NCBI GenBank assembly: GCA_965205505.1
Contig: CBDBHB010000009.1
Span: 576,001-640,000 of the forward strand
Source of the DNA: Acidobacteriota bacterium
GTDB taxonomy: Bacteria; Acidobacteriota; UBA890; WLXD01
Direction: 5' to 3'
Length of the DNA: 64,000 nt
The position numbers and the translations under genes were made by a program. The notes beneath the pieces are model-generated. The model searched no databases. It saw nothing but the letters and a program-made list of their open reading frames with translations, and was not told the DNA's origin. Below, in pieces: positions 603 through 45,283 of the stretch (position 1 is the stretch's first letter; each line of letters starts with the position of its first letter).

Positions 603-740
603 GGGCGCGAGTGGCAGGGGCTCGAGGATCAACGGTGGCGACCCTGACAGAGTCGGTCTCTCTGTGGTCGCGAGTCGCGAACATGCGCTCATTGAGCCTA
701 TGTTCGATCACTCCACTGAGCAAACACGAGAACGCGCCCC

Positions 741-1645: not shown

Positions 1646-1762
1646 GGTGCTGGCGTCGTCGTCATCGTTCTGCGCTGCTCGCCACGTGTCTATCCCAGTG
1701 GACCGCCCTCGCGCTCGCCAGACCCACGGTGGTGACCTCTCCCCGCCGGATACCGGACCGGC

Positions 1763-2203
1763 CTACTCGTCACCAGGCCGGGGGAAGGCACCAACTGGCG
1801 GCGCCGGCAGCGCCAGCTTCGGTGCGAACAGCAGCGCGTACGTCAGCATCGCCAGTCCGATGAACAGCGGAATGCTGCCGACCATCCACACGTCTGCGTC
1901 GTCGATGAATCGCAGCCCGAAGATCAGCCCCACCCCGACGCCCGAGAGGATAAAGCCTGTCGCCACCATGCCCTGCCGGCGTCGATGTTGTTCGGCCTCG
2001 TACTCGTACCGCATCAGATCCTGAACCTGCTGGGCATTCATTTCGCCAGCGTCGACAAGCTTCTTGCGAAACTCGTAGCGATAGTACGCCTCGCGCTCCT
2101 TGCGGCGCTGCTCGGCCCAACCAACGACCGCCAGGAAGCTGAACAGGGAGATCGCCCCGACGATCGGGATCATGAAGATCAGAGCCTGCGGGAACCAATC
2201 CAT
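1763..2203 (-). CDS. Small membrane protein, DUF6249-like, first gene of the ECF module
   Basis: Three predicted TM helices with a charged RRKERE linker; AGGAG RBS; directly upstream of the sigma gene. Confidence 0.65.
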   Translation of the reverse strand: MDWFPQALIFMIPIVGAISLFSFLAVVGWAEQRRKEREAYYRYEFRKKLVDAGEMNAQQVQDLMRYEYEAEQHRRRQGMVATGFILSGVGVGLIFGLRFIDDADVWMVGSIPLFIGLAMLTYALLFAPKLALPAPPVGAFPRPGDE

Positions 2204-2268
2204 CGTTCATTTCTCCTGTGCGGCGCCGCCAAATGGCGCGTCGGAAACTCTCGTCAATCTCATATTGT

Positions 2269-2298
2269 TTGACGACACTGCTGCTGCGACTGGTTGCA
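2269..2298 (-). promoter_or_regulatory. Putative ECF-sigma autoregulatory promoter
   Basis: Minus strand TGCAACC-N17-CGTCAA fits the AAC/CGTC pattern of ECF promoters, about 65 nt upstream of the module. Confidence 0.45.
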
Positions 2299-2396
2299 TT
2301 ATCTGACTCGTCCGTTCACCCTCGCGTCGCGGCGCCAACGGTATGCAGGTGGCGGTGGCCCCACGCCCGACGGCGCACGGGCCAATCTCGAGGTGG

Positions 2397-3704
2397 ATGA
2401 TGAGCGCGGAGCCCAACGACGCTGAACGTGGCCTGGTTCGTGCGATGGGCCGCTGGGACCTCACCGCGATGGGCATCAACCAGGTCATCGGCAGCGGCAT
2501 CTTCGTGCTTCCGGCGTCGGTAGCGATGCTCGTGGGCGTGCCCTCGAGCCCGTGGCCGTTTGTGCTTGCCGGCGTTGCCAACACGCTGATCGTGCTGTGC
2601 TTCGCAGAGGTATCGACGCGATTTCGCAATGCCGGCGGACCCTACTTGTATGCGCGCGAGGCGTTCGGGTCGTTCGCCGGTTTCGAGGTTGCGTGGATGC
2701 TCTGGCTCACGCGGCTGGCCTCGCTGGCGGCGCTTGCCAACGCGCTGGCACTCTATCTGGCCTACTTTCTCCCTGGCGCCTCGAGCGGCGGCGGCCGGGT
2801 CGCGGTGGTCACGGTGACCATCGGCGGGCTGGCGCTGATCAATTTTCTCGGAGTGCGCTACGGCTCATGGGCCGTGAATCTCTTCACGGTGAGCAAGCTA
2901 GTACCGCTGGTGGGCTTCGTGCTCGTCGGCGCGTTCTTCGTCGATCCCAGCCGGTTCTCCGGTTTTTCGATGTCGATCACTCCGGGCACAGGCGAAGCTG
3001 TCTTGCTGCTTATGTTCGCCTTTGGAGGCTACGAGCTTTCGACGTTGCCGGCCGGCGAAGCGCGAGCACCGAGACGCGATGTGCCGTTCGCATTGCTCAC
3101 CACGATTGCGGTCGTTTGCGCCATCTTCCTGGCCGTGCAAGTGGTTACCGTGGGAACGCTGGCCGACGTCGCTTCATCGGAGACACCGCTGGCAGACGCT
3201 GCTGCCAATTTCCTGGGGCCAGCCGCCGGGGTGCTGCTGGCGATCGGCGGGGTGATCTCGATCGCCGGATCGAACGCCGGTACGATGTTGGCGGGGCCGC
3301 GGGTAATGTATGCGATGGCCGACCGCGGCCAGCTGCCGCGGTTCCTGGCCCATATTCACGCGCGGTATCGGACGCCCGATGCCTCCATATGGCTCTATGC
3401 CGGGGTTGCCTGGGCACTGGCCGTGTCTGGGTCGTTCGAGCAGATGGCCAAGGTCAGCGCCGTGGCGCGCCTGATCTATTACGTGGCCACCTGCGCCTCG
3501 GTACCGGTTCTGCGCCGCCAGGGCGGCGACGTCGGAGGTTTTCGTCTTCCGGGTGGTGCGCTGGTGCCGGTGCTGGCGGTGTTGACGTCGATCGCCATCA
3601 TCCTCGGGGCGGATCGCATCTCGCTCGCGGCGGGGGCTGTCGCGTTGGGCGTCGGCGCGCTGCTGTATGCGGCATACGGTCGCACCGGGGCGGCAGGCGA
3701 GTAG
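2397..3704 (+). CDS. APC-family amino acid permease
   Basis: INQVIGSGIF (TM1), GGPYLYAREAFG, FAFGGYE (TM6) and about 12 TM segments. Confidence 0.92.
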   Translation: MMSAEPNDAERGLVRAMGRWDLTAMGINQVIGSGIFVLPASVAMLVGVPSSPWPFVLAGVANTLIVLCFAEVSTRFRNAGGPYLYAREAFGSFAGFEVAWMLWLTRLASLAALANALALYLAYFLPGASSGGGRVAVVTVTIGGLALINFLGVRYGSWAVNLFTVSKLVPLVGFVLVGAFFVDPSRFSGFSMSITPGTGEAVLLLMFAFGGYELSTLPAGEARAPRRDVPFALLTTIAVVCAIFLAVQVVTVGTLADVASSETPLADAAANFLGPAAGVLLAIGGVISIAGSNAGTMLAGPRVMYAMADRGQLPRFLAHIHARYRTPDASIWLYAGVAWALAVSGSFEQMAKVSAVARLIYYVATCASVPVLRRQGGDVGGFRLPGGALVPVLAVLTSIAIILGADRISLAAGAVALGVGALLYAAYGRTGAAGE

Positions 3705-3729
3705 CGCGAGTACAAACCGCCTTCACCTG

Positions 3730-5391
3730 CTAGAGATCAAACCGTCGTTGGTGTCGTAGCACCGCGCCGGGTCGGCCCGGAAGGCGCGTTCCGTCGCGGA
3801 CGACCAGCGTCCCGTTGACCAGCACCGCATGAATACCTGCCGGTTTGTGGTCTGGCTCCATCCAGGTGCGGCGCTCGCCGATCTGTCCGGGCTCGAACAA
3901 CACGATGTCCGCGGCGTAGCCCGGCGCCAACCGACCACGATCGGCCAGTCGCAGGCGCTCAGCAGGCAGCGAAGTTGCCTTTCTGATGCCCTCCGACAGA
4001 TCGAACCAACCTTCATCACGCGAGTAGTGTCCGAGCATTCGAGGGATCGCGCCATAGCCACCGGGGTGCGCCACACCCTCGCCCTTGAGGATCACGTCCA
4101 CTCCCACGGCATGATGCGGGTGGACCAGAAGCTGACGCAGAACATCGTCGTCGTCGGGGGTGCCGCTGATTCCATGGTAGCGGGCCATCACATCGCCGCC
4201 GGAGGCGACGGTGATCTCGGCGGCGCATTCAAACGGCGTCGACCGCCGGCGTCGGGCGATGTCGCTCAAGCTGCGTCCGAGCCAGCCGCTATGGGAGTCG
4301 GACGAGGCCTGCAAGAGCACGATGTTGTCCCAGCCTGTGGCGCCCACGAGGTTGTGCGCCCAGCCGTCGTCCCAGGGCGGCCAACTAGGCACACGCGTGT
4401 TGATGTCGTCGGCGACCCGGCGGCGGTACGCACCGCTGCTCAGTCTCTCGCATAGCTTCGGAACACCTTCGGCCAGCGTCCAGGGAGGATAGATCGCCAT
4501 CAGCGTGGTGTTGACGGCGTGGTAGGGGATCACATCAGATGCCACGTCGATGCCGTTTCGTCGCGCCGCATCTTCGAGCCGTATGGTCTCGCGGGTCAGA
4601 TGCCAGTGGCCTGGTCCGAACGCTTCATGGTGAGAGTGCTGCAGTCGCACTCCGGTGCGTCGACCGATCTCTAGAAGCTCGCGCTCGGCATTGATTGCGA
4701 GTTCGCTGGAGCCGCGTACATGACAGGCGAACAGTCCGTCGACGGCGGCCACCGGCGCACACAACGCCACGATCTCGTCGGTGTCTGCCCACATGCCGGG
4801 TGGGTAGATGAGGCCGGCGCTGAGACCGAAGGCGCCCGCATCGAGAGCTTCCTGAACCAGGGCTGACATGGCCGCGAGCTCGTTGTCGCGGGCCACCCCC
4901 GGCTCGTTGCCCTTCACCGCACAGCGGATGGCGCCGTGGGCCGCCAGCGCGGCGATGTTCAGCGGTGGGCCAACCGTCTCGAGGCGATGTAAGTATTCGG
5001 CAAAGCTCTCCCAGGCGAGCTCGGTTCCGCGTGGAACGATGAGCGCCATGAACGCCGTTAGGGCGTCGCGGTGGGCCGCGGGTGCCGGCGCAACGCCGAG
5101 CCCGCAGTTGCCGATCACCTGAGTCGTAATTCCCTGCTGGAGGAACGGACCGAGTAGGTCCGGCGCTTCCGGGTGAGTCAGCGCTGCATCGGAATGACCG
5201 TGGATGTCGATAAAGCCTGGGCACACCGCCAGGCCATCGGCGTCGAGCGCCGCCGCCGCCGGCGCGCTACCTGGTGGGTGGAGCGCAGCGATGCGTCCTG
5301 ATTCGATGACTATGTCGCCACGGCGCGGCGGACCACCCGACCCGTCGTAGATGACCGCATTGCGGATCGCTCGAACGTCGGTCGACGTCAT
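3730..5391 (-). CDS. N-acyl-D-amino-acid deacylase (D-aminoacylase, amidohydrolase family)
   Basis: PGFIDIHGHSD, GITTQVIGNCG, GLSAGLIYPPG, HPGGYG, RGRLAPGYAADIVLF motifs. Confidence 0.9.
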   Translation of the reverse strand: MTSTDVRAIRNAVIYDGSGGPPRRGDIVIESGRIAALHPPGSAPAAAALDADGLAVCPGFIDIHGHSDAALTHPEAPDLLGPFLQQGITTQVIGNCGLGVAPAPAAHRDALTAFMALIVPRGTELAWESFAEYLHRLETVGPPLNIAALAAHGAIRCAVKGNEPGVARDNELAAMSALVQEALDAGAFGLSAGLIYPPGMWADTDEIVALCAPVAAVDGLFACHVRGSSELAINAERELLEIGRRTGVRLQHSHHEAFGPGHWHLTRETIRLEDAARRNGIDVASDVIPYHAVNTTLMAIYPPWTLAEGVPKLCERLSSGAYRRRVADDINTRVPSWPPWDDGWAHNLVGATGWDNIVLLQASSDSHSGWLGRSLSDIARRRRSTPFECAAEITVASGGDVMARYHGISGTPDDDDVLRQLLVHPHHAVGVDVILKGEGVAHPGGYGAIPRMLGHYSRDEGWFDLSEGIRKATSLPAERLRLADRGRLAPGYAADIVLFEPGQIGERRTWMEPDHKPAGIHAVLVNGTLVVRDGTRLPGRPGAVLRHQRRFDL

Positions 5392-5469
5392 CGTCTACTC
5401 CAGGGTGCTTGCAGGCTCCGCATGGGCGCGCTTCTCCGACTCCGGGCACAGCTCACCTGCCCATGGTAT

Positions 5470-5656
5470 AAGCGTAGACAGTTCGACCTTGTGTCGGGAA
5501 GCGGGTGCGAATCCCGCGCTGCCGCGCAACTGTGATCGGGGACGAAAGCCGCCCGAGGAGCGGCCGCGTCGTGCGGTCGGCTCCGGAACGCCACTGGTAG
5601 CACCGGGAAGGTGGCGGTGAGTAGGACGATCCGAGAGCCAGGAAACCGAACCGGCC
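5470..5656 (+). ncRNA. Cobalamin (AdoCbl) riboswitch
   Basis: GGGAA-GCGGGTGCGAATCCCGC-GCTGCCGCGCAACTGTGA...GCCACTG...GGGAAGG...AGCCAGGAAACC B12-box motifs directly upstream of a btu-type ABC operon. Boundaries approximate. Confidence 0.9.
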
Positions 5657-5688
5657 ACCGGCCGGCCCTCGCGGGAAGGGATACCACG

Positions 5689-6483
5689 ATGGCGGAGGCA
5701 CGTCTGTCTAGACGGACCGCGGACCTTACCGCGAGTCGACCCGGTGTATCGCTGCGTGCCGACGGCCTCGTGTTCGGCTTCGATCGCCCCTTGCTGTGCG
5801 GCGTCGATCTCCGGGTCTCGGGCGGCGAGTGCGTCGCCCTGCTCGGCGCCAACGGTGCCGGAAAGACCACCTTGCTGCGACTTCTGGGAGGACTGATCGA
5901 GCCACAAGCCGGACAGGTCGAGGTCGACGGCATCGCGTCCCCGCTCCTGTCGCACGAGCAACGGGCCCAGCGCATCGGCTACTTGCCGCAGCGTATCCCG
6001 GTGGCGACCGGATTCGCTGTATACGAGATGGTGCTGATGGGGATGTACGCCCTGCTACCGGCGCGCGGCTGGGAGAGCCAGCGCGAGTGGTTGGCAGTAG
6101 GACGCGCGCTGCATCGGGTGGGGGCCCGACGCCTGATACGGCGTCCGTTCGACGAGCTTAGCGGCGGCGAGCAGCGCCGCGTGCTGCTTGCCCGTGCCTT
6201 GGTGGCACGACCGGCGCTGTTGCTGCTCGACGAGCCGCTCGCTGCCCTCGATCCGGGATTCGTCCTCGAGTTGACCGCGACGCTCGCCACCCTGAAGTCG
6301 TCGGGCGTGGGCATGGTGATCTCCACTCATCGGCTCTCGCTGGTGCGTCAGCTCGCCGACCGCGTGGTCGTGCTCCGTCGCGGCGAGGTTTTGGCGGCGG
6401 GGACCCCGAGTGCGACGCTGAGCCCCGTTCTGCTCGACGAAGCGTATGGTACCGACGCGTTTTCCCGTGCGGATGCCGGATGA
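5689..6483 (+). CDS. btuD: Cobalamin ABC transporter ATP-binding protein
   Basis: GANGAGKTT, LSGGEQRR, LLLLDEP; first gene after the riboswitch. Confidence 0.85.
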   Translation: MAEARLSRRTADLTASRPGVSLRADGLVFGFDRPLLCGVDLRVSGGECVALLGANGAGKTTLLRLLGGLIEPQAGQVEVDGIASPLLSHEQRAQRIGYLPQRIPVATGFAVYEMVLMGMYALLPARGWESQREWLAVGRALHRVGARRLIRRPFDELSGGEQRRVLLARALVARPALLLLDEPLAALDPGFVLELTATLATLKSSGVGMVISTHRLSLVRQLADRVVVLRRGEVLAAGTPSATLSPVLLDEAYGTDAFSRADAG

Positions 6484-7502
6484 GGCATCGTACATTGTTA
6501 CCGCGGCGTCGACGCTCGATGCTATTGGCGGGCAGCGGGGCGGCGTTGGCGATCGCCTTGTTGCTCGCCCCGACGGTGGGTTCCACGTCGGTGAGCCTGC
6601 AGCGCGTGTGGGCCGATCCGTTCAGCTGGGCCGACAACCCCGATGCGGCGGTGTTCTTCGTGGCACGACTGCCACGAGTACTACTGGCGTGCATGGTTGG
6701 AGGAACGCTGGCTCTCGCCGGAGCAACGTTCCAGTCGCTACTACGCAACCCGCTTGCCAGCCCCTACACACTCGGTGTCACTGCCGGTGCGACGCTGGCC
6801 GCATTCTTGGCCATTCGCTTCTCTCCAGTGCCCGCGTTCGCGGAGTTTTCAGTGCCGCTGATGGCGTTGGCGGGCGCCCTGGTAACCACCGGGCTGCTGC
6901 TGTTGCTGACGTCGCGGCGCGGCGATCTGCCTCCAACCGTACTGTTGCTCGCCGGTGTGACGCTCAATTTCACGATCAGCGCCGGGGTCCTTTTATTGCA
7001 GTACTTCTCGGATCACGCCGAGACGGCGCGCATGATCCGGTACCTGATGGGAGATCTGGACGCTGCCACGTACCGCATGCTGCTGCTGCTGGCGGTGGTG
7101 AGCCTGCCGGGTTGGTTGGCGCTGCTACGCGCCGGTCGCACGCTGAACCTACTGAGCCTCGGTCCCGACGAGGCGCGTGCGCAGGGAGTCAACGCCTCGG
7201 CGGCGACGCGCAGCGGCTTGCTGTGGGCATCGTGGGTCACCGGCCTGGCGGTGGCAGTGGCGGGGCCGGTGGGTTTCGTCGGGATCCTCGTGCCGCACGC
7301 CGTACGGCTGCTCGGAGGGTACGACTATCGCATCGTGTTGCCGGCCTCGATGCTCGGCGGCGCTGCGTTCCTGATCGCGTGTGACACTGCCGCCCGCCTA
7401 CTCCTGGCGCCGGTGGAGCTGCCCGTGGGCATCCTCACTGCGTCCCTCGGTGGGCCCTTCTTTCTGATGCTGCTGCTGAGCCGGAGGATCCGCTATGCGT
7501 AG
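6480..7502 (+). CDS. btuC: Cobalamin ABC transporter permease (FecCD/BtuC family)
   Basis: RLPRVLLA, FQSLLRNPLASPYTLG, GPVGFVGILVPH, ELPVGILT..GGPFF. Confidence 0.88.
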   Translation: MRHRTLLPRRRRSMLLAGSGAALAIALLLAPTVGSTSVSLQRVWADPFSWADNPDAAVFFVARLPRVLLACMVGGTLALAGATFQSLLRNPLASPYTLGVTAGATLAAFLAIRFSPVPAFAEFSVPLMALAGALVTTGLLLLLTSRRGDLPPTVLLLAGVTLNFTISAGVLLLQYFSDHAETARMIRYLMGDLDAATYRMLLLLAVVSLPGWLALLRAGRTLNLLSLGPDEARAQGVNASAATRSGLLWASWVTGLAVAVAGPVGFVGILVPHAVRLLGGYDYRIVLPASMLGGAAFLIACDTAARLLLAPVELPVGILTASLGGPFFLMLLLSRRIRYA

Positions 7503-8349
7503 GGGCAGTGCCTTCCGGTGGTTGGGGCTGCTCGGTGTCATCCCGCCGCTGTTCGCAGCGTCTTTGGAGTTGCAGGGGCCAGCTCAGCGGATTGTCTCTT
7601 TGGTGCCGGGGGCCACCGAGGTACTGTTCGCGATCGGCGCCGGCGAGCGCGTCGCCGGCGTGAGCAGCTTCGACCACTGGCCTGCCGAGGTCGAGCGGCT
7701 TCCCCGCGTAGGGGGCCTGATCGACCCGGATCTGGAGGCGATTCTGACGCTGCGCCCCGATCTGGCGATCATCGATCCGTCGCAGGGCTCGCTGCGGCGT
7801 CAGCTGGCAGGGAGCGGCATCGCTACGTACGAATACGCCACCGCCGATGTGGCTGATCTGTTGCGCAACATGCGGGCGATTGGAGACTTGCTCGGCCTCT
7901 CAAACCGAGCAGCGCAGTCTGCAGACAGGCTGCGCGCCGACCTCGACGCTGTTCGCGCCCGCTACGCTTCCGACGATCCGCCGAGCGTCCTGATGGTCTT
8001 CGGCCGGCGCGATGGTAGCTTCGCCGAGCTGTGGGTAAACGGCGGCATCGGTTTTCTCGAGGAGCTCACCGCCATCGCCGGCGGGCGCAACGTCTTCGGC
8101 GATGTGGAGCGTCCAGGGTTCAAGGCAGGGCTCGAGGCGGTCATCGCGCGTGTTCCCGACGTCGTCGTGGAGCTTCGCACCGACGGACAGGATGCCGTGC
8201 CGACGGCGATGCTCGAGATGGAGTGGCGAACCTTGCCGGGGTTCGCGAACGTCCGGGTGGTGACGCTCGCCGCAGGCTGGATGCTGGTACCGGGTCCGCG
8301 CGTTGCCGAAGCCGCACAGGTGCTGGGCGAGCGGTTGCACCGGCGTTGA
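7495..8349 (+). CDS. btuF: Cobalamin-binding periplasmic protein
   Basis: RIVSLVPGATEVLFAIG, DLEAILTLRPDL, PGPR motifs; signal-peptide-like N-terminus. Confidence 0.85.
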   Translation: MRRGSAFRWLGLLGVIPPLFAASLELQGPAQRIVSLVPGATEVLFAIGAGERVAGVSSFDHWPAEVERLPRVGGLIDPDLEAILTLRPDLAIIDPSQGSLRRQLAGSGIATYEYATADVADLLRNMRAIGDLLGLSNRAAQSADRLRADLDAVRARYASDDPPSVLMVFGRRDGSFAELWVNGGIGFLEELTAIAGGRNVFGDVERPGFKAGLEAVIARVPDVVVELRTDGQDAVPTAMLEMEWRTLPGFANVRVVTLAAGWMLVPGPRVAEAAQVLGERLHRR

Positions 8350-8384
8350 CGGACGTCAGCCACCCGGCGCGAGCGGCGACTCGT

Positions 8385-9413
8385 CTACCGCGCCGCCGCA
8401 ATGCGCTGACGAGCCCTGCGTTCCGCCAGACGGGTCGTTGACTCACCGCTGGCAAGCGATTCCTGCAACAGCTCGCGCGTCGTGTCCGCGAGCCCCTCGA
8501 GCAACGCTTCCTGGTCGCTACGTCCGTGGAAATCGCAGACCCCCAAGATCACCGCCCCCGACGAGGAAACGACGTCTGGCACGAACAGGATCTCGCGCTC
8601 CTTGAACACCGCCTCCACCGCTGGCGCCGCGAGGATGTTGTTGGCGGCACCGCACACTGCCCAGGCGCGCAGCTCTCCTGCCGCCGCGCTTGTCAGCAGG
8701 CCGCCGTCGGCGCAGGGAGCGAGAAGATCGATGTCGGCTCGCAAGAGCTCAGCCGCCGGTACGACGGTTCCTCCCACGGCCTCGGCGGTTTTCTTTGCGG
8801 CGTGCTCGTCGAGGTCGGCGATCACCAGCCGCGCTCCGGCAGCAGCGAATACCCGCGCCACCGCGTCGCCGATGCTGCCGCACCCCTGAACGCCGATGCG
8901 CAGTCCCGTCAGACCGGGGCGTCCGGCGATCTCCACGCAGGCGCTTGCGCAGCCCACGACTCCTCGGGCAACCATGACCGCCATATCCGTCTCGTCGGTG
9001 CGTACCCAGCGGCTCCGCGAGGCCATGATCTCTAGGTCGGCGCGCGATGTACCGAGGTCGCCGGCGGTCATGAACCTGCCGCCCATGTCCTCAACCCGCT
9101 GGCCCAGTATCGAGAAAGCCGCTGCTCGATCGAGCTCGGGGCGGTCCATCACCACCATCTTGGCGCCGCCGGCGTCGACCCCCGCGAGGGCGCATTTCAG
9201 GGTCATGGCGCGCGCCAGGCGTCGGGCATCGCCGGCCGCGTCCGCTGCCGATTCGTAGCTCCAGGTTCGTGTGCCGCCGGCGGCCGGGCCGAGCGTCGTG
9301 TCGTCGATCACCAGAAAAGCGCGCAGCCCCGAGCTCGCGTCGGTAAAGATCGTCAGCTGTTGCGCTCCGGTGTCTTCGAGTTGTGACAGCAGCGATTCTA
9401 TTTCTGCGCTCAT
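8385..9413 (-). CDS. Glu/Leu/Phe/Val dehydrogenase family protein
   Basis: DTTLGPAAGGTR, LARAMTLK, GGAK, QGCGSIG, CGAANN motifs. Start set at MSAEIES. Confidence 0.88.
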   Translation of the reverse strand: MSAEIESLLSQLEDTGAQQLTIFTDASSGLRAFLVIDDTTLGPAAGGTRTWSYESAADAAGDARRLARAMTLKCALAGVDAGGAKMVVMDRPELDRAAAFSILGQRVEDMGGRFMTAGDLGTSRADLEIMASRSRWVRTDETDMAVMVARGVVGCASACVEIAGRPGLTGLRIGVQGCGSIGDAVARVFAAAGARLVIADLDEHAAKKTAEAVGGTVVPAAELLRADIDLLAPCADGGLLTSAAAGELRAWAVCGAANNILAAPAVEAVFKEREILFVPDVVSSSGAVILGVCDFHGRSDQEALLEGLADTTRELLQESLASGESTTRLAERRARQRIAAAR

Positions 9414-9535
9414 GGCCGATGCCCCCGGCGACCCCAAGACCCGAGCCTGCCCCACCCACATCGCTCCGCTGTATGCTACCGTGCGCCGTCGTTCGAGAGA
9501 GATTCCGATGTTCGCCGTGGACAGGAGGACGTGCC

Positions 9536-10639
9536 ATGAAGATGCGCGCCGCGCTGCTGCAAGAGTTCGGTAAGCCGCTGGAGATCCACGACGTCGACCT
9601 CGCCCCGCCAAAGGCTGGCGAGGCGCTGGTCAAGGTGCACGCCTGCGGCGTCTGCCACACCGACATGTACACCTGGAGCGGTGCCGACCCGAGCGGGTTT
9701 GTACCCACGGTGCTCGGTCACGAGGGCGCCGGGGTGGTCGAAGAAGTCGGTGAGGGGGTCACGTCGCTGAAGCGCGGCGATCACGTTGTGTGCCTGTTTT
9801 CGCCCGAGTGCGGTGAGTGCAGTCACTGCACCAGCGGCAAGACCAACATCTGCATGGCCATCCGCGACACGCAGGGGCAGGGTTACCTGCCCGATGGAAC
9901 GCCGCGTCTTTCTGTCGACGGCACGCCGATCCGGCATTTCATGGGCACGAGCACGTTCGCCGAGTACACGGTCATGCCCGAGATCGCCCTGGCGAAGGTC
10001 AATCCCGATGCGGCGCTCGACAAGATTTGCACGCTCGCCTGCGGTGCAACCACAGGTCTTGCGGCGGCGCTGTACAAGGCGGAGGTGGAGCCGGGATCGA
10101 CCTGCGCCGTCTTCGGCTGTGGCCTCGTCGGGCTAGGCGCCGTCGCGGGCTGCCAGCTGGCCGACGCTGGGCGCATCATTGCCGTGGACATGTCCGAGGA
10201 CCGGTTGGCATCGGCGCGCCACTATGGCGCCACCGATACGATGGTCGGCGGTCCCGAGACCGTCGACAAGATCGTCGAGATAACCGGGGGCATGGGCGCT
10301 GACTACACCTTCGAGGCCACCGGAAACGTCGGCGTGATGGCGCAGGCAGTCGAGGCGGCACGCATGGGTTGGGGTCTGTGCACGGTGCTGGGAGTGGCCG
10401 GCAAGGGCGAGACTCTGGATATCATTCCGCGGTTCCTCATCACTGGCCGTCGGGTGCAGGGCGGCAGCTTCGGAGGCGCCAAAGGGCGCACCCACGTGCC
10501 GAAGTTCGTCGACATGTACATGGAGGGAAAGCTCGACCTCGACGGCCTGGTGTCGCACCACCTGACGCTCGACGAGGTCATGAAGGGCTTCGACCTCATG
10601 GAGGAGCAGGACGGGATCCGCTCGGTCATCACGTTCTGA
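9536..10639 (+). CDS. frmA: Class III Zn-dependent alcohol dehydrogenase / S-(hydroxymethyl)thiol (formaldehyde) dehydrogenase, FrmA-like
   Basis: GVCHTD..SGADP.GF.P.VLGHEGAG, structural Zn site CGECSHC..C, HFMGTSTFAEYTV; AGGAGG RBS. Confidence 0.75.
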   Translation: MKMRAALLQEFGKPLEIHDVDLAPPKAGEALVKVHACGVCHTDMYTWSGADPSGFVPTVLGHEGAGVVEEVGEGVTSLKRGDHVVCLFSPECGECSHCTSGKTNICMAIRDTQGQGYLPDGTPRLSVDGTPIRHFMGTSTFAEYTVMPEIALAKVNPDAALDKICTLACGATTGLAAALYKAEVEPGSTCAVFGCGLVGLGAVAGCQLADAGRIIAVDMSEDRLASARHYGATDTMVGGPETVDKIVEITGGMGADYTFEATGNVGVMAQAVEAARMGWGLCTVLGVAGKGETLDIIPRFLITGRRVQGGSFGGAKGRTHVPKFVDMYMEGKLDLDGLVSHHLTLDEVMKGFDLMEEQDGIRSVITF

Positions 10640-38448: not shown

Positions 38449-40593
38449 ATGCATCGACGCGCACTCACGCTGTTGACGCTCATCCTCAGCCTGGGGGTGA
38501 CCCTGGATCCTGCCTCGAGTCTGGCTCAGGAGGCGGCGTCCGCAGCAACGGAGCCCGGCCGTCTGGCTGCCGAAGACACCCTGCGGATCAGCAACGTCGG
38601 CAACCCGCGCATCTCGCCGGACGGCGAGTGGGTGCTTTACACGGTGGCGAGCCGCGATATGGATGACGACGAGCTGTCGCGCCACACGCACTTGTATCGC
38701 GTACGTGTTGACGGCACCGGGGGGAGGCAACTCACCCGGGGAGACAGCTCCGCCAGCTCGCCACAGTGGTTTCCGTCGGGCGACAAGTTCGCCTTCCTTC
38801 GCGAGGTCGACGAGGAAAGTCAGGTATTTGCCATGCACACCGATGGCGGGGAGGCCTGGCAGGTGACGGATTCCGAGGAAGGGGCTGGCAGCTACGGGCT
38901 CTCTCCGGACGGCAGCAAGATCTGGTTCGTGGCGCGTGACCCCGAGACCGCTGAGCAGAAGCGGCGCGCCAAACAGCACGACGATGCCGTCGTCGTCGAT
39001 GCCGAGTTCCGCTTCAGTCACCTCTGGTTGCACGATATGGAGGCGGGCGAGTCGACGCGGCTGACGGACGGCGACTTTACCGTCAGCGACCCACGCTGGT
39101 CGCCTGATTCCAGCCGTATCGCCTTTGTTACGCGACCGACGACCAAGGTGAACGACGGCTGGAACAGCGACATCCGCGTGGCCGACGTTGCTTCGGGCGA
39201 GTCGCGGGTGTTGTTCCAGAACCCAGGGCCCGATACCTCTCCGCGCTGGTCGCCGGACGGCGACAAGATCGCGTTCACCGCCAACACCCACTCCGGAACA
39301 ACCGTCTGGCACAGCAAGCTCTACCTGCTGCCGGCGGATGGCGGTGGCGAACCCAAGATCTTGCTCGAGGACTTCGACCTGAACGCCGGCGCGCCGATCT
39401 GGGCTCCCAACGGCGCCGATATCTATTGGGCCACCGGTGAGCGCACCGACGTGGCGCTCTACTCGGTGCAGCTAGCTACCGACGAAGTTCTGCGGCACGG
39501 TGTGCCCTCGGGCGCCAACTTCCAGTTCCAGCTGTCGCACGACGGCGGTCGCTGGGTATGGGTGCACTCCAACCCGGCGCATCCGTCCGAGCTCTACACC
39601 GCGCCGTCGAACGATCTTTCGCAGCTCACTCGTCTCACCACCCACAATGCCTGGTTGGCGGAGTCGTTCGAGCTCGCCGCCGCCCGCCCCATCACCTGGA
39701 CCAACTCCGACGGTCAGGAGATCGAGGGCGTGGTGCACTTTCCGATCGGGTATCGGGAGGGGACGGCGTACCCGCTTATCGTCCACCCGCACGGTGGTCC
39801 CAGCGGCGCGGTGATGACGTCGTTCAACTCCACCAACCAGATGCTCGCCGCCAACGGCTTCCTGGTGTTGCAGCCCAACTTCCGCGGCAGCTCCAACTAC
39901 GGTCAGGAGTTCCTCAACGCCAACCGTGACAACTGGGGCACACGCGACTACGACGACATCATGACCGGGGTCGACGACCTCATCGCGCGCGGCTGGGCCG
40001 ATGCCGATCGGATGGTCGCGTACGGTTGGAGCTACGGTGGCTACATGACCTTTTGGATGTCCACCCAGACCGATCGCTTCAAGCTGATCTCACCGGGTGC
40101 CGGGCTCACCAACTTGTACTCGATGTACAGCACGACCGACATTCCGGGATACATGGGGTGGTTCTTCGGCACGCCGTGGGACGACGAGGACGCGTACCGA
40201 CGCCACTCGCCCATTCGCCACGTGAAGAACGTCACCGCCAAGATGCTGATCATGCACGGCGCGAACGATGCCCGCGTGCCACCGGAGCAGGCGGTGGAGT
40301 TCTACCAGGCGCTGCGCGACCTGGGTAAGGACGTCACGTACATTTCCTATCCGCGCCAGGGACACGGCATCGGTGAGCCGCGACTGCAAGTGGACCGCCT
40401 GCGTCGTTATGTGTGCGCGTTCACCGATGCTGTAGGGATGGACGCTACCACCGAGGATTGCGACGGCGGCGTGCCGGCGGTGCCTGCCGAGCCTGCCGAA
40501 GAGAGCGAGGACACGGCAGCGGGCAGCAGCGCCGACGATGACAACGATGCGCTGGGAGACGGTACTTTCCGTGTCGTCGAGGCGCACGAATAG
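38449..40593 (+). CDS. S9-family (acylaminoacyl/dipeptidyl) peptidase with PD40 beta-propeller
   Basis: Signal peptide; SPDG/WSPD repeats; HGGP, GWSYGG nucleophile, HGANDARV, QGHG. Confidence 0.93.
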   Translation: MHRRALTLLTLILSLGVTLDPASSLAQEAASAATEPGRLAAEDTLRISNVGNPRISPDGEWVLYTVASRDMDDDELSRHTHLYRVRVDGTGGRQLTRGDSSASSPQWFPSGDKFAFLREVDEESQVFAMHTDGGEAWQVTDSEEGAGSYGLSPDGSKIWFVARDPETAEQKRRAKQHDDAVVVDAEFRFSHLWLHDMEAGESTRLTDGDFTVSDPRWSPDSSRIAFVTRPTTKVNDGWNSDIRVADVASGESRVLFQNPGPDTSPRWSPDGDKIAFTANTHSGTTVWHSKLYLLPADGGGEPKILLEDFDLNAGAPIWAPNGADIYWATGERTDVALYSVQLATDEVLRHGVPSGANFQFQLSHDGGRWVWVHSNPAHPSELYTAPSNDLSQLTRLTTHNAWLAESFELAAARPITWTNSDGQEIEGVVHFPIGYREGTAYPLIVHPHGGPSGAVMTSFNSTNQMLAANGFLVLQPNFRGSSNYGQEFLNANRDNWGTRDYDDIMTGVDDLIARGWADADRMVAYGWSYGGYMTFWMSTQTDRFKLISPGAGLTNLYSMYSTTDIPGYMGWFFGTPWDDEDAYRRHSPIRHVKNVTAKMLIMHGANDARVPPEQAVEFYQALRDLGKDVTYISYPRQGHGIGEPRLQVDRLRRYVCAFTDAVGMDATTEDCDGGVPAVPAEPAEESEDTAAGSSADDDNDALGDGTFRVVEAHE

Positions 40594-40693: not shown

Positions 40694-40753
40694 GAAAAAT
40701 CCGTACCGAACTGGCTTTCAGTGACTTTTATAATGGGACACTATCCAGAAGTG
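40694..40753 (+). repeat. Left 60-bp direct repeat (att/dif-like)
   Basis: Aligns without gaps to 42923-42982 (51/60; core 36/38, TTTCAGTGACTTTYATAATGGGACACTAYCCAGAAGTG). Confidence 0.85.
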
Positions 40754-40982
40754 GGTGGTGTCATAATATCGTTTTCTTTCATCTGTTCTGATGTTGAAGT
40801 TTAGTCACCATGGTGAAATAATCCAAATCAACTTCAGAAGCATAGCCCGGCGGAAGCTCCGGTAGACACCTGTTTGGCCCGAAACAACTCAGGCCGGACG
40901 GTCGGCGCACCCGCCGGGCGTTCCTGTGTCTTAACGTGAATCGATTCGCGTCATATGATCTTTCTGTCTGCCGGAGATCATC

Positions 40983-41522
40983 ATGAGCACCGACAAAGAG
41001 TTCGCGTCCACGCTGGTGGAGCAGTACCACCAGCTCACCAGTCGCGCCGACGAAATCAAAGTCGAGCGGTCGAACCTACACGAGCAGCAGGAAGCGCTCT
41101 CCACCGAGCTAACCAAGGTCGAGAACCTGCTACTCGGGATCTGGGACCTACTCGATGAGATCGGCGACTCCAGCAAGCTCCTCGGAGCGGATCTTCCGTT
41201 CAAAATCCCCGAAGAGGACGTGTCGGCCGACGAAGCGATTCTGACGCACCTTGCCAAGCGCTCGGAGCCTCGCGCCGTGCAGAAGGTCGCCATACTCATC
41301 TCCGCGAAGGGACTCCTCGGGCTGGGCGAGTACACGGATTCCGGTATTCGGTCAGCCATCGCCCGCGCTTGCAAGCGTGGCGATCTAGAACGTGTGGGGC
41401 GGGGCAGGGTCCGATTATCAGAAGAGGCGGTTGAGAAGTACGAGCCCAAGTCAAGTGGCGGTGGTGCTGGTGTTGTCATTCATGGAGGCGCCCTCGTGAA
41501 TGACGACGACATTCCGTTCTAG
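40983..41522 (+). CDS. Coiled-coil plus winged-helix protein with an SSB-type C-terminal DDDIPF tail
   Basis: GGAG RBS; N-terminal heptads; DSGIRSAIARACKRGDLERVGRGRVRL wHTH-like segment; Gly-rich linker ending NDDDIPF. Confidence 0.7.
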   Translation: MSTDKEFASTLVEQYHQLTSRADEIKVERSNLHEQQEALSTELTKVENLLLGIWDLLDEIGDSSKLLGADLPFKIPEEDVSADEAILTHLAKRSEPRAVQKVAILISAKGLLGLGEYTDSGIRSAIARACKRGDLERVGRGRVRLSEEAVEKYEPKSSGGGAGVVIHGGALVNDDDIPF

Positions 41523-41559
41523 AAAAAGAGCCCGCCGCTGCGGTAACAGCGACGGGCTC
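41521..41559 (-). terminator. Intrinsic terminator-like hairpin for minus-strand transcripts
   Basis: GAGCCCGCCGCTG-CGGTAA-CAGCGACGGGCTC preceded by AGAAAAA (U-tract on the minus strand). Confidence 0.6.
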
Positions 41560-41573
41560 CAACTACTCATGAT

Positions 41574-41647
41574 GGCACCGTAGACAAACTGGCAAAGTCG
41601 CCCGGCTAGCAAACTGGGAGATCCGGGTCCGAATCCCGGCGGTGCCT
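41574..41647 (+). tRNA. tRNA-Cys-like RNA or pseudo-tRNA with an 8-nt anticodon loop
   Basis: Acceptor GGCACCG/CGGTGCC with U73; D arm GAC-AAACTGGCAAA-GTC; anticodon arm CCCGG-CTAGCAAA-CTGGG; T arm CCGGG-TCCGAAT-CCCGG; no encoded CCA. Confidence 0.7.
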
Positions 41648-41685
41648 CACTTGTTTCACTCCCGCTAGCAAACAGGAGGTAGCTC

Positions 41686-41730
41686 ATGAGCTACACGCGG
41701 ATTCTACCGCGTGGCCCGCCAGCCGCGTAA
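41686..41730 (+). CDS. Possible 14-aa peptide MSYTRILPRGPPAA
   Basis: Strong AGGAGGT RBS 5 nt upstream; the ATG sits inside the perfect palindrome GTAGCTCATGAGCTAC. Confidence 0.3.
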   Translation: MSYTRILPRGPPAA

Positions 41731-41885
41731 CCCTGAAACGCGCAAGGGGCCGGGGTTGCGTCTCGCGATTGCGCCCCGGCCACCTAAAAGTCGCCCGGCC
41801 CGCTGCCGTTAAGGTTGCGGCGACCGAGTGGGCGCTTGACGACCTGCTCGTGTGGGAAGCGCCTTACTGAGTAGCGTGGCCAGAC

Positions 41886-42443
41886 CTAGCAGCACTGCCG
41901 CGCAGCGCGACTATACGAGCTGTAGATTTCGACCTGTGGCGGCCGAGGGCGATTTATCCAATTGGCTAGACGCCGCAGTAGTCTGCGCAGCCAGGCATGA
42001 TCAGCGAGCAAACGGATCAGCACGCTGTTATCGTAGATGATCTTCAAAATCGCGTCGAAATACGAGGAGACAACCCTCTCCACCCGTTCATCTCCCAGAG
42101 ACCTGATCTGGTGTCGTAGCTCAGCGAGCCTCTTCTGCTCCGCAGGGTCTTTTCCGGAGCGCCGCCCCTCTTCGATTACGGCTACGAAGTTCCGAAAGTT
42201 CAGGTGATCTACGTTTCTTACTAGCTTGTTGGTGGTCCCATAGAACGTCGTAAAGATCATGTTGTCTTCTGACAGGCGCTTTTCTGCGACCAGTTGCACC
42301 AGCTCATCACGTACCGCATACAACCCATATGCTCTTATCTCTCGATCAACGCGGCGTAAGCGCCACCGCGCAACCACGAGTGACGCCGCTAGGACGAAAG
42401 CGACCACCGTCAAAACTGCGATGTCAGCCAGACTCATCGTCAT
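41886..42443 (-). CDS. Hypothetical protein with N-terminal TM anchor (island)
   Basis: TM helix then LYAVRDELVQLVAE...NKLVRN.DHL; overlaps the upstream gene; GGAG RBS. Confidence 0.7.
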   Translation of the reverse strand: MTMSLADIAVLTVVAFVLAASLVVARWRLRRVDREIRAYGLYAVRDELVQLVAEKRLSEDNMIFTTFYGTTNKLVRNVDHLNFRNFVAVIEEGRRSGKDPAEQKRLAELRHQIRSLGDERVERVVSSYFDAILKIIYDNSVLIRLLADHAWLRRLLRRLANWINRPRPPQVEIYSSYSRAARQCC

Positions 42444-42714
42444 CTCCCTCGCTAAGGGGAAGGTCGCTCTGGTACCTAGAGTCGCTCGACAGCCTCTCTC
42501 TTAGTATGACGTCCTGGAGCTTGTTCCGGTTCTCCACGAGGCGCGTGATTTCCGCGTTTTTGTCTTCCAATCGCCGCTCATACATTCGATGAAACTGGTA
42601 GACGTACAACGCCAACAGGAGAAAGAGCAGTGCTGCGAAAGGCTCGTATTGGGTCCAAACATCCTCGATGATTCGGCGCAACAAGTCTGCCCAGCCGGAT
42701 GAAACTTGCTGCAT
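42424..42714 (-). CDS. Small single-TM plus coiled-coil hypothetical protein (island)
   Basis: FAALLFLLLALYVY TM followed by YERRLEDKNAEITRLVENRNKLQD coiled coil; coupled to the next gene. Confidence 0.65.
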   Translation of the reverse strand: MQQVSSGWADLLRRIIEDVWTQYEPFAALLFLLLALYVYQFHRMYERRLEDKNAEITRLVENRNKLQDVILRERLSSDSRYQSDLPLSEGDDDESG

Positions 42715-42922
42715 CGAGAGTCCGAGACTTGGTGACTGGAGACGGTCGATAGCGCGCCGCTTGCCGGCCTACCATCGGTCACGGTCAGCATCGGAGTGGG
42801 CGATTCTCCTCGGAAATGGATCACGCGAACTGTTGCATCGATTTTCGCAGCCCGCAAGGTGCGGAGTGTCTGTAGTTTGAACAGAAGAGGCACGAAATTG
42901 TCTCCTTCCGTATCTGAGCCGA

Positions 42923-42982
42923 GAAAAATCCATGCCGGTCTACGTTTCAGTGACTTTCATAATGGGACACTACCCAGAAGTG
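42923..42982 (+). repeat. Right 60-bp direct repeat (att/dif-like)
   Basis: Partner of 40694-40753. Confidence 0.85.
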
Positions 42983-42984
42983 AC

Positions 42985-43014
42985 TTGACATTAACGTTTG
43001 ATTTGTCGTACAAT
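42985..43014 (+). promoter_or_regulatory. Near-consensus sigma70 promoter
   Basis: TTGACA-N18-TACAAT. Confidence 0.65.
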
Positions 43015-43019
43015 CTTCT

Positions 43020-43069
43020 GATTGATGCTGTAAACGCTCCGTCCGGGCAGCCGCCGGGCGGTTTTTTTT
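43020..43069 (+). ncRNA. Candidate small RNA of about 50 nt
   Basis: Lies between the promoter and a terminator, with no convincing plus-strand gene downstream. Confidence 0.4.
43039..43069 (+). terminator. Rho-independent terminator
   Basis: CCGTCCGG-GCAGCCG-CCGGGCGG followed by T8. Confidence 0.8.
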
Positions 43070-43333: not shown

Positions 43334-45163
43334 CTAGCTGAGTGAGAGCACACGTTCGACCTCTGCCGCGACCTCGGTGGCGAGCTCGGCGCACTCGGCC
43401 AGCGCGTTCCCGATGTCGCTCCGCATCTCGGCGCCGAATTCAGCGTCGTCGATGTGCCGCAGGTTGATGCGCACGTTGTAGGCCGCCGCCTGCGCCCCTG
43501 CGTGTGCCAGCAGCGCACCGGTGCCGGCGTCGCTGATCATCTCGGGGTCGGCCATCGCGGCGATCTCACGGCAAACGCGAAGCGCATCGCGACACTGCTG
43601 CACGGTGGCCAGCGGTACGCGGGTGGCAGCCTTGTAGCCCTCCTGCATGGATTCGGCGCGCTCTGCCTGCTGGGCTTCGGTGTCGCGCGGCATACGCATG
43701 GCGTCGAGCACCTTGTCGAAGGCGCTGGTGTCGGCGTCGACGCCACGCAGCAGGGCGTCCTTGACGGCCTGGCCGCGCTCGGCGATCGAGCAGAGCTCGT
43801 CGTACCGGTCGCTAAACTCTCCCTTGCCGACGCTGAGGTTGGCCACCATGGCGGCGAGGGCGCCGCCCAGCGCGCCTGCCAGTGCAGCGACCGAGCCGCC
43901 GCCCGGCGCCGGCGTGTCGCGCGATACCTCGTCGACGAAGTCAAAGGTGGTGCGGTTCACGAGCGGGCCGTCGATCAGCGGCATCGCCAACACCTTTTCG
44001 CCGGCCTCGAACGGCGCCACGTCGCGCAGCCCCATCGATTGAATCGCCGTCTCCATCAGGTCGGGCACCGGCGCGCCGGTCGATTTGCGCATGCGGCGCA
44101 CGTAGAACAGCGCCGCCTCGCGCATGACCTCGTAGGGCACCACGCCGACGATCTCGGAGCCGGTGATCACGATGCCCCGCTCACCGGCCACTTCACGCGT
44201 TGCCTCGAACACCTCGTGCAGCGGCGCCTCCTTGGTGTTGGTGAGGTTCATGCTCACCTGGGCGCGCTTGAACTCCTCGATCACCCAGCCGATGCCCTTG
44301 ACGTGGGTGAACAGTCCGTCCGTGTAGACCGGACCGGTCGGGTTGTCGGGATCGATGCCCAGGTCGTCGTAGCGCTGGCGCAGATCGCCACCGTGCTCCT
44401 TGCAATAGTGGGCCGCGAGCTCATCGAACGACTTGCCGACGAAGTCGCAAGGGCCGCACGGGTAGGTGCCATCTTCGGGAAACTTCACCACCGTGCCCTT
44501 GTAGTAGAAGGGCTCGATGTTGCCGGTGCGCTTCCAACGTCCGCGCTCACGCACCGCGTAGGCAATCTCATTGGCATAGCGCCGGTCGGTGGTGTTCAGA
44601 TCGACGTTGTAGGCGACGAGGAACTCGCGCGCTCCGACCGCGGTGGCGCCGGCACCGGCGTTGAGCTCGGAGGGACCGAAGTCGGGCGCCCACTCCGGGT
44701 CGGCCAGCTTGTCTTCGAGTCCCTCGTACTCTCCCGCTCGCACCCGCGACAGGTTGCGCCGCTGCGGACGGCTGGCGGCGTTCTCGTACAAGTACACGGG
44801 GATTCCCAGCTCGGTACCGATGCGCTCGCCCACCTGCCGCGCGATCTCGGCGCAATCCTCCATGGTGACACCGGAAACCGGCACGAACGGCAACACGTCG
44901 GTGGCGCCGAAGCGCGGATGGGCGCCGGAGTGCTGGCGCATGTCGATCAGCTCGGCGGCGCGCCGCACCGACTGGAACGCGGCCTCGGCAACGGCTTCCG
45001 GCTCGCCGACGAAGGTCACCACCGTGCGGTTGGTATCGGCGCCGGGGTCGACGTCGATCAGCCGCACGCCGGAAACGCTCTGGATGGCGGAGGTGATCTC
45101 CTGGATAACGCTCTCGTCCCGACCCTCCGAGAAGTTGGGGACACACTCGACGATGCGATCCAT
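43334..45163 (-). CDS. ftcD: Glutamate formiminotransferase-cyclodeaminase fusion with an internal insertion
   Basis: IVECVPNFSEGR, HPRFGATDV.PFVP, AQVSMNL; C-terminal TPAPGGGSVAAL and NVRINL cyclodeaminase motifs. Confidence 0.93.
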   Translation of the reverse strand: MDRIVECVPNFSEGRDESVIQEITSAIQSVSGVRLIDVDPGADTNRTVVTFVGEPEAVAEAAFQSVRRAAELIDMRQHSGAHPRFGATDVLPFVPVSGVTMEDCAEIARQVGERIGTELGIPVYLYENAASRPQRRNLSRVRAGEYEGLEDKLADPEWAPDFGPSELNAGAGATAVGAREFLVAYNVDLNTTDRRYANEIAYAVRERGRWKRTGNIEPFYYKGTVVKFPEDGTYPCGPCDFVGKSFDELAAHYCKEHGGDLRQRYDDLGIDPDNPTGPVYTDGLFTHVKGIGWVIEEFKRAQVSMNLTNTKEAPLHEVFEATREVAGERGIVITGSEIVGVVPYEVMREAALFYVRRMRKSTGAPVPDLMETAIQSMGLRDVAPFEAGEKVLAMPLIDGPLVNRTTFDFVDEVSRDTPAPGGGSVAALAGALGGALAAMVANLSVGKGEFSDRYDELCSIAERGQAVKDALLRGVDADTSAFDKVLDAMRMPRDTEAQQAERAESMQEGYKAATRVPLATVQQCRDALRVCREIAAMADPEMISDAGTGALLAHAGAQAAAYNVRINLRHIDDAEFGAEMRSDIGNALAECAELATEVAAEVERVLSLS

Positions 45164-45283
45164 TTGAAGCCTCGTATTCACTGGGCTGGTTGGCGTTTCG
45201 GTCGGCCCATGATGCCCATGGAAACTCGAGGGCACAAACACCGCGTCCGACTAAATGGTGCCGGCTACGATATCAACCGGGTG

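Follow-up and report, generated by a model that had tools for sequence, protein, structure and literature searches.

The window analysed here, a stretch of 64,000 nucleotides from an Acidobacteriota bacterium (contig CBDBHB010000009.1, positions 576,001 to 640,000), carries between an S9 family peptidase gene and ftcD a segment of foreign DNA enclosed by two direct repeats. This segment, at 40754-42974, is most probably (about 85%) a 2,221-bp transposase-less derivative of a cargo-carrying insertion sequence (IS) of the IS1 family, abutting what remains of an older copy. It is an element of an ordinary kind, a member of a poorly catalogued lineage and, because its transposase is absent, a derivative rather than a complete IS1 member. 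An earlier note, made from the sequence alone, had described the segment as an integrase-less island between dif/att-like repeats. It rightly saw in the segment a mobile insert of foreign origin that is not autonomous, carries orphan cargo and could be moved only with help in trans. The mechanism that it proposed, recombination by XerCD or by a helper integrase, does not hold: the repeats are IS ends, and intact sister elements carry an IS1-family DDE transposase and not a tyrosine recombinase. In the following, G000 denotes the genome of the window itself, G003 a genome of the same genus, and G005 a genome of another genus of the same family.

Ends of the element and the direct repeats

The features that delimit the element are the following.

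40694..40745, plus strand: right-end stump of an older IS1-family element, 52 nt (first 52 nt of repeat 1)
40746..40753, no strand: left copy of the 8-bp target duplication, CAGAAGTG (last 8 nt of repeat 1; the same 8 bp stand at both element ends)
40754..40771, plus strand: left terminal inverted repeat GGTGGTGTCATAATATCG, degenerate (aligned with the left ends in G003 and G005)
42923..42974, plus strand: right end of the element, including the right terminal inverted repeat at 42957-42974 (first 52 nt of repeat 2)
42975..42982, no strand: right copy of the 8-bp target duplication, CAGAAGTG (last 8 nt of repeat 2)

The two ungapped direct repeats of 60 nt, at 40694-40753 and 42923-42982, are spaced by 2229 bp, agree at 51 of 60 positions (85%) and share a nearly identical 38-nt core, as had been described. 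The search for further copies that the earlier note had suggested returned only these two in the 5.98-Mb genome, with up to eight mismatches allowed in a 39-mer; in a blastn-short search of the genome, the second copy was found with an E value of 1e-9. A scan with an 18-nt consensus end placed the left end of the element at 40754-40771 and the right end at 42957-42974, with CAGAAGTG beside each. The inverted ends read GGTGGTGTC (at 40754) and GACACTACC (at 42974), and GACACTACC and GGTAGTGTC are inverted copies of each other. The sequence at repeat 1 runs ...GGGACACTATC, then CAGAAGTG, then GGTGGTGTCATAAT..., and that at repeat 2 runs ...GGGACACTACC, then CAGAAGTG, then ACTTGACA.... The 60-nt repeat is 52 nt of transposon right end followed by an 8-bp target duplication, and not a dif or att site, which explains exactly where the repeat starts and stops. 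The stump shows 92% identity over 52 nt with the right end of a transposase-bearing element of G003 (locus L012, 10439-10490), and the same sequence also terminates elements in loci L016 (G003) and L017 (G005).

The 29-bp imperfect dyad that had been placed within each repeat is weak on direct reading, its arms matching at only 6 of 10 positions. The true dyad consists of GACACTATC, 8 bp and GGTGGTGTC; it occurs only at repeat 1, across whose 3' edge it extends, and its two arms are abutting right and left ends of transposons.

These ends agree with the general pattern of the IS1 family in ISfinder, in which the ends begin with GG...TG and the target duplications measure 8-9 bp. The window element has terminal inverted repeats of this type, which begin with GGT.GTG and recur on transposase-bearing copies, and it has an 8-bp duplication, CAGAAGTG, on both sides. 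An IS1-type DDE transposase of its own is missing. We propose that the DDE transposase of a complete copy would have inserted the element into 8 bp adjoining the outer end of an older copy already in place, and that this insertion would have created the succession of right end, 8 bp and left end at repeat 1. The older copy would later have been deleted down to its last ~52 nt, and the transposase gene would have been replaced by, or lost beside, a segment of 1.1 kb that encodes two small membrane proteins. The segment would thus look as if framed by two attachment sites because the element landed beside the stump of an older copy.

Sister elements and the mode of insertion

The assignment to the IS1 family rests mainly on elements of G003 and G005, which share with the window element the left end, the first open reading frame (ORF_A), a hairpin, a tRNA-shaped RNA, a leader frame and the 52-nt right end, and which in addition encode a DDE transposase. 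The two sister transposases (G003 L012, 8717-9574, and G005 L017, 5355-6230) are 92% identical. In G003, the transposase gene is located between the homologue of window 41514-41806, which contains the tRNA-shaped RNA, and the conserved right end. In G005, the same place is occupied by a tandem array, which reads CACCAGTG, element 1, CACCAGTG, element 2, CACCAGTG and then the promoter of a small-RNA gene. Element 2 of this array measures 1.9 kb and encodes a protein of 291 aa with weak Pfam matches to IS1 and other DDE domains; its best NCBIfam match is the IS1 family (E 1.6e-17, 64 bits, with a cut-off of 100). Plasmid homologues with 40-43% identity bear the PGAP name 'IS1 family transposase'. 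The sister transposases are encoded by single frames of 276-291 aa, and the classical insA/insB' arrangement with a -1 frameshift was not observed in them. Compared with the IS1 family as represented by IS1 of E. coli and by single-frame members, the likeness therefore resides in the DDE transposase of the sisters, its NCBIfam and PGAP assignments, the ends and the length of the duplication. The differences are the single 276-aa frame instead of the insA/insB' frameshift, a size of 1.9-3 kb with passengers instead of 768 bp, the presence of ORF_A, of the tRNA-shaped RNA and of a leader with an arrest motif upstream and, for the window copy, the missing transposase.

The family is very large, a relative being encoded by 525 of 567 candidate stretches in genomes and by 581 of 599 in metagenomes. 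Perfect 8-bp duplications are present at unrelated sites in G003 (AGGTCCCG, L112) and G005 (AGACAGGC, L114), and a copy on contig C4 of G000 shows a duplication that matches at 7 of 8 positions (GCCCAGTC and GCCCGGTC). The family duplicates 8 bp at unrelated targets, as a DDE element does. In G003, an 8.8-kb version (L011) is present at the same site between the S9 peptidase gene and ftcD, flanked by TAGAAGTC and TAGAAGTG. This locus (G003 contig C2, 1391500-1407500) comprises, at 1824-10585, an IS1-family shell that was invaded by copies of IS3, IS256 (two) and IS1595; close to its left end stands a tRNA-shaped gene (anticodon CGA), and at its right end two abutted ends form a mini-palindrome of 32 nt.

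Junctions in which a right end is followed by 8 bp and a left end were found on contig C4 of G000, in L016 of G003, twice in L017 of G005, and in an array of G004. The last comprises three head-to-tail copies of another member on contig C2 (~1-8400; L105, L110, L113), which are 2555 bp apart, 100% identical where they overlap, and joined in this way. On contig C4 of G000, two different IS1-family elements stand head to tail at 77909-82205 (L102, L111), with an 8-bp spacer, at the contig end. Abutted right and left ends a few bp apart, as well as head-to-tail arrays, are also characteristic of the junctions of tandem or end-targeting insertion sequences such as IS30, IS21 and IS911. In contrast to these, the spacer here equals the 8-bp duplication and the abutted elements are often different members of the family, which argues for insertion beside a resident end and not for dimers of one element. 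As only one possible tandem junction was found among 160 distant family loci, the head-to-tail stacking may be local to this bacterial order.

These observations also bear on the idea of a site-specific recombination cassette, in which XerCD would act on a dif-like site, as in integrative mobile elements exploiting Xer (IMEX) and pdif modules, or a helper tyrosine integrase would act on repeats corresponding to attL and attR. Several features would suit such a cassette: direct repeats flank a foreign segment without a recombinase, the dyad at repeat 1 has an 8-bp spacer, the same 8-mer stands at every junction of the G005 array, as a crossover core would, and the same chromosomal position is used in three genomes. 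However, the arms of the dyad are the two ends of transposons that bear a DDE transposase, and the 8-bp duplications of family copies at unrelated sites are perfect and differ from one another, a pattern that would not result from a core-specific recombinase. In addition, the repeat is found nowhere else in the genome, the dyad within the repeats is poorly matched, and no tyrosine recombinase is encoded within 130 kb. The resemblance to IMEX, pdif and dif systems is limited to an insert without recombinase between short direct repeats; the core of about 28 bp with two 11-bp arms and a 6-bp spacer is absent, since the spacer of the true dyad is 8 bp and its arms are transposon ends. An integrase-type island, with a recombinase and one specific attB, does not fit either: none of the 35 PF00589 matches of the genome lies in the window (the nearest are 133 kb and 298 kb away), in agreement with the absence of a recombinase reported earlier, although no search was aimed at serine recombinases. 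A dif-type pattern matched no site in the genome, and the host dif was thus not located. The reading as a Xer or integrase cassette is contradicted by the DDE transposase of the sisters and by the duplications at unrelated sites, and we consider it highly unlikely. The earlier note had itself named a repeat that proves to be an IS end as an observation that would speak against its proposal, and this is what we found.

Insertion site and present state of the element

The genes that surround the element are the following.

38449..40593, plus strand: S9 family peptidase, left flank, outside the element (Pfam Peptidase_S9 with E 1e-57, PD40, DPPIV_N)
42985..43069, plus strand: conserved small-RNA gene, outside the element (TTGACA-18-TACAAT promoter, 11/12; RNA of ~50 nt; intrinsic terminator)
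43334..45241, minus strand: formiminotransferase-cyclodeaminase (ftcD), right flank, outside the element (Pfam FTCD_N, FTCD, FTCD_C)

The insertion point is upstream of the small-RNA promoter, 3 nt from its -35 box. The small-RNA gene is conserved beside ftcD in G001-G005, with two copies in G005, and exhibits an invariant TTGAC at -35, TACAAT or TATAAT at -10, the 5' sequence CUUCUGAUUGUUGCUG, and a terminator with compensatory changes. It has no Rfam match at E values up to 1. A role of this RNA as an antisense regulator of the element was considered and rejected, the best duplex reaching -28 kcal/mol compared with -24.3 kcal/mol for the best of 20 shuffles, and the counterpart being absent in G003.

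The proximity of this gene raises the question of whether the repeat could be a duplicated promoter or operator region of the small RNA, with ordinary chromosomal genes enclosed. A TATAAT/CATAAT hexamer is present within the repeat, copy 2 stands directly upstream of the -35 box, and a degenerate copy is found there in genomes without the insert. Nevertheless, these 52 nt also form the end of elements that carry a transposase and are remote from any small-RNA gene (G003 L012 and L016), which contradicts this explanation, and copy 1 is followed by a transposon left end and not by a promoter and a small RNA. A duplicated promoter is therefore extremely improbable.

Elements are inserted at exactly this point of the small-RNA promoter in three genomes, G000, G003 and G005, with lineage-specific 8-mers. 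The comparison with relatives that had been proposed earlier revealed a single degenerate repeat, or stump, before the small-RNA promoter in G001 and G004, and in the metagenome run X16 a 379-nt contig that joins a G005-type stump directly to the promoter. This contig is the unoccupied allele of a G005-like organism, and the comparison fits a transposon target and not a recombinase core. For the window lineage, the whole insert was recovered in single contigs of near-identical strains in runs X4 (12 differences) and X10 (18 differences and 2 gaps), and in pieces in runs X16 and X19. Neither a joint that skips the insert nor an empty allele of this lineage was seen in these four runs, and the insertion has thus not been caught in the act here.

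A variant of the IS1 explanation is that the cassette is still active and is moved in trans by the two IS1-family transposases encoded on contig C4 of the same genome. Consistent with this, the first 9-10 nt of the ends are common to the C4 elements, and both ends and the 8-bp duplication are intact. However, the C4 transposases share no more than 51% and 43% of their residues with the G005 cognate (52% and 45% with that of G003), the left end is degenerate past nucleotide 9 (13 of 18 positions match the family consensus end, and 8 of the first 9), the element is present as a single copy, and the metagenomes show the insert whole or in pieces but never skipped. In addition, the transposase of IS1 acts mainly in cis. 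We regard continued activity as improbable. The element is probably inert now, its left end being degenerate and the only family transposases found in the genome being 43-51% identical to the cognate. It resembles the mobile insertion cassettes (MICs), which are transposase-less IS derivatives such as MIC231 of Bacillus cereus: like them, it exhibits IS-type inverted ends, a target duplication and passenger genes, lacks a transposase, and could be mobile only in trans. Unlike them, it looks like a one-off decay product, present in one copy, and not like a propagated family, and its mobilisation in trans is putative.

Some observations weigh against our assignment of the segment to the IS1 family. 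As the window element itself has no transposase, its membership is deduced from its ends and from its homology to the sisters outside the transposase, and the NCBIfam score of the sister transposase (64 bits) is below the curated cut-off of 100. The left inverted repeat fits the consensus imperfectly, at just the 13 of 18 positions given above. The sister element in L012 of G003 has no target duplication (GGCAAACG compared with CATACGAG), and the flanking pair of L011 differs at 1 of 8 positions. The empty-site allele of the window lineage was not seen in the four runs. The order of events, with an older copy that was later truncated, is inferred from the G005 arrangement, and a site-specific recombinase with an 8-bp overlap would also leave identical 8 bp on both sides.

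Interior of the element and its lineage

Between its ends, the element comprises the following features.

40983..41522, plus strand: ORF_A, 179 aa, with a coiled-coil N-terminal part and an AbiEi-like winged helix; conserved first gene of the element subfamily
41527..41560, no strand: 15-bp G+C-rich hairpin 3' of ORF_A (terminator scan, minus-strand call; nearly identical in G003 L012)
41574..41648, plus strand: tRNA-shaped RNA gene, 75 nt (ARAGORN; Rfam tRNA with 47.6 bits, gathering score 29)
41661..41730, plus strand: hairpin covering the ribosome-binding site (RBS), then a 14-codon leader frame, MSYTRILPRGPPAA (ATG at 41686, stop at 41728-41730), with an RGPP arrest motif (read and translated)
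41808..42922, no strand: segment specific to the window genome, at the place where the sisters have the transposase and their own cargo (homology gap with G003 L012)
41886..42443, minus strand: ORF185, orphan protein with one N-terminal membrane helix (ORF list)
42424..42714, minus strand: ORF96, small membrane protein (overlap of 20 nt between its stop and the ORF185 start)

The segment had been called AT-richer than its surroundings, which is true for much of it (G+C of 0.51-0.58, compared with 0.62-0.71 in the flanks) and untrue for its middle part at 41550-41999 (0.64-0.65). A Pfam scan of four ORFs (179, 185, 96 and 130 aa) revealed no recombinase or transposase domain, and the whole of 40754-42974 contains no transposase. 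ORF_A shows 26% identity (E 5e-8) with the first gene of element 2 of G005 and 31% over 156 aa with the first gene of the G003 element; its matches to AbiEi are E 3e-5 in PADLOC and E 0.0024 for Pfam AbiEi_4, the latter below the cut-off. ORF_A was dismissed as a general gene of the family, as its tblastn matches were confined to 3 close-subfamily loci among 101 searched. From the hairpin to the leader frame, through the tRNA-shaped RNA and the RBS hairpin, all parts are shared with G003, with 73% identity over 293 nt (window 41514-41806). The homology with L012 ends near 41806, at a point from which the sisters run on into the 5' region of the transposase, and restarts at 42922; the gap brackets the place of the transposase in the sisters.

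The specific 1.1-kb segment that fills this gap encodes, on the minus strand, two small membrane proteins whose genes overlap. For ORF185, a search of 5.8 billion clusters yielded 3 relatives, a search of 400 further genomes of the phylum none, the Atlas only unnamed hypothetical clusters, and PHROGs, Pfam and NCBIfam no match. For ORF96, no family match was found in Pfam, NCBIfam or PADLOC, and PHROGs gave a single weak match (E 0.0034) to an entry of unknown function. The earlier note had considered a defence cargo. A pointer to it is a PADLOC match of ORF185 to '1TM-TIR' (E 3.6e-6), which extends over the non-TIR part and is not backed by the AlphaFold model, built from 4 sequences, all-helical and of low confidence (pLDDT 50); a defence role of this protein is not supported. 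The matching slot is occupied by a Panacea-domain gene in element 1 of G005 and by an unassigned 153-aa frame in G003. Judging from these sequences, the slot before the right end behaves as a variable cargo slot. The G005 gene (L017, 4546-5133) is a SocA/Panacea-domain antitoxin-like gene that stands, with a small frame behind it, between a broken transposase gene and the right end.

The tRNA-like RNA that had been noticed in the segment is called at 41574-41648 by both ARAGORN and Rfam. It forms a cloverleaf whose anticodon loop, CUAGCAAA, numbers 8 nt and whose T loop has C at position 55, where U is near-universal; the 7-nt anticodon loop and the U54-U55-C56 of canonical elongator tRNAs are not found in it. 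Because of this loop and of the C at position 55, the window copy is probably decayed or decaying, as far as its sequence indicates. Homologues of 75-76 nt with 7-nt loops and normal T loops are located upstream of the transposase gene, on the same strand, in G003 and G005, and similar genes in other arrangements are present in one C4 element of G000 and in L115 of G003. The C4 gene, in the second of the two head-to-tail elements, measures 76 nt (anticodon GGA) and lies on the strand opposite the transposase. The set exhibits 7/5 cloverleaves, a 3-bp D stem and U73. Among the tRNA genes of the genome, tRNA-Cys is the closest to the C4 copy, and is not among the five closest to the window copy. 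The anticodon loops of the homologues read CUGGAAA (three copies) or CUUGAAA, which correspond to serine anticodons; the variable arm of the sister copies is nonetheless short, and the tRNA-Ser genes of the genome itself measure 90-98 nt. Compensatory changes are observed in 12 of 16 consensus pairs, as any set of tRNAs would show.

Other observations concern this RNA. Position 41615 is T in the window and C in all four metagenome strains, which turns a G-U pair of the anticodon stem into a G-C pair. The stretch 41602-41620 (GCTAGCAAAC), comprising the anticodon loop and its flanks, is repeated identically at 41661-41679, 59 nt downstream, in the loop of the RBS hairpin; G005 shows a looser resemblance and G003 none, and the recurrence may be an anticodon-arm mimic or a repair footprint. 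A guide-RNA role, with the anticodon loop pairing with the 8-bp target, was discarded after a by-eye comparison of three elements in which complementarity was not seen.

Among distant family loci with enough upstream sequence, ARAGORN found a tRNA-shaped gene up to 450 nt upstream of the transposase gene and on the same strand in 7 of 143. A covariance model found one in 14 of 160 loci, of which 3 were members of the training set and 4 score only 20-22 bits; 15 of its 32 matches in total fall in the upstream window, which makes up ~4% of the searched sequence. Several of the distant genes have odd anticodons (four-base, ochre, or serine on a short frame). Two tRNA-shaped genes of 86-92 nt, with UUA as an ochre-reading anticodon, are found in metagenome contigs (L120, 1357-1448, and L158, 2134-2219), where an IS1-family transposase follows 280-490 nt downstream. 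Elsewhere in G000, on contig C9, ARAGORN calls two 88-nt 'tRNA-Ala' genes (2680513-2680600 and 2962668-2962755) and one 83-nt 'tRNA-Val' gene (2045152-2045234), which are overlong for these identities and may be irregular tRNAs or false calls. Mukai et al. (PMC5389517) link irregular acidobacterial tRNAs to toxin-antitoxin loci and possibly to transposable elements. The likeness is that odd tRNA-shaped genes with unexpected anticodons occur within mobile DNA. The 'allo-tRNAs' that they describe are of the 8/4 or 9/3 type with long variable arms, whereas the genes found here have 75-76 nt, fold as 7/5 cloverleaves and keep a constant position upstream of the transposase.

The leader frame stands behind AGGAGG in the three subfamily members, as MSYTRILPRGPPAA in the window, MRFHIGHLPILPRGPPCL... 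in G005 and MIARAPPSAHP in G003. Between G000 and G005, the ILPRGPP stretch shows 5 synonymous and 0 replacement changes (p ~0.001 by simulation). Among the distant family loci, only 1 of 160 has an RGPP or RAPP motif upstream. Regulatory arrest peptides with such motifs include ApdA, ApdP and peptides encoded by upstream ORFs of Streptomyces. The leaders resemble them in being short frames with a strong RBS and with RGPP (G000 and G005) or RAPP (G003), located upstream of a regulated gene. They differ in that 2 to ~30 codons follow the motif and in that the downstream gene encodes a transposase, and ribosome stalling on them is a candidate property. According to PMC12992588, no known ribosome-arrest cores are stronger than RAPP and RGPP; the terms 'transpos', 'insertion sequence' and 'mobile' gave no match in that paper. 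Within the accessible parts of the literature searched, no paper was found that describes IS1 elements with a tRNA-shaped RNA or with an arrest leader. A leader gated by the element's own tRNA was rejected, no consistent leader codon readable only by the tRNA-shaped RNA having been found.

It is conceivable, though we hold it to be doubtful, that the complete relatives control their transposase by a two-part RNA device that is undescribed for any insertion sequence, in which the tRNA-shaped RNA, at its constant position just upstream, is followed by the RGPP/RAPP leader, which would park a ribosome and thereby open or close the structured 5' region of the transposase message. Such a device would tie transposition to the tRNA-processing or translation state of the host, and the window would hold a decayed copy without the transposase. 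In the window, the tRNA-shaped RNA and the leader survive as relics; they are parts worth following, best in the intact elements of G003 and G005.

What was a candidate integrase-less island is, in the reading that we favour, an ordinary decayed, cargo-carrying insertion sequence. The locus illustrates a trap for scans for IMEX-like elements or satellites, in which a transposon that has landed beside the stump of another gives the appearance of flanking att sites. The IS1 lineage to which we assign it is very large, with hundreds of matches in genomes and metagenomes, and has been little described; its cargo varies, and in this bacterial order its elements stack head to tail beside resident ends. 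In a subset, a tRNA-shaped RNA keeps a constant position ahead of the transposase, and the present subfamily has an RGPP/RAPP leader in addition. Should both be functional, they would represent a new way for a transposon to sense the cell.

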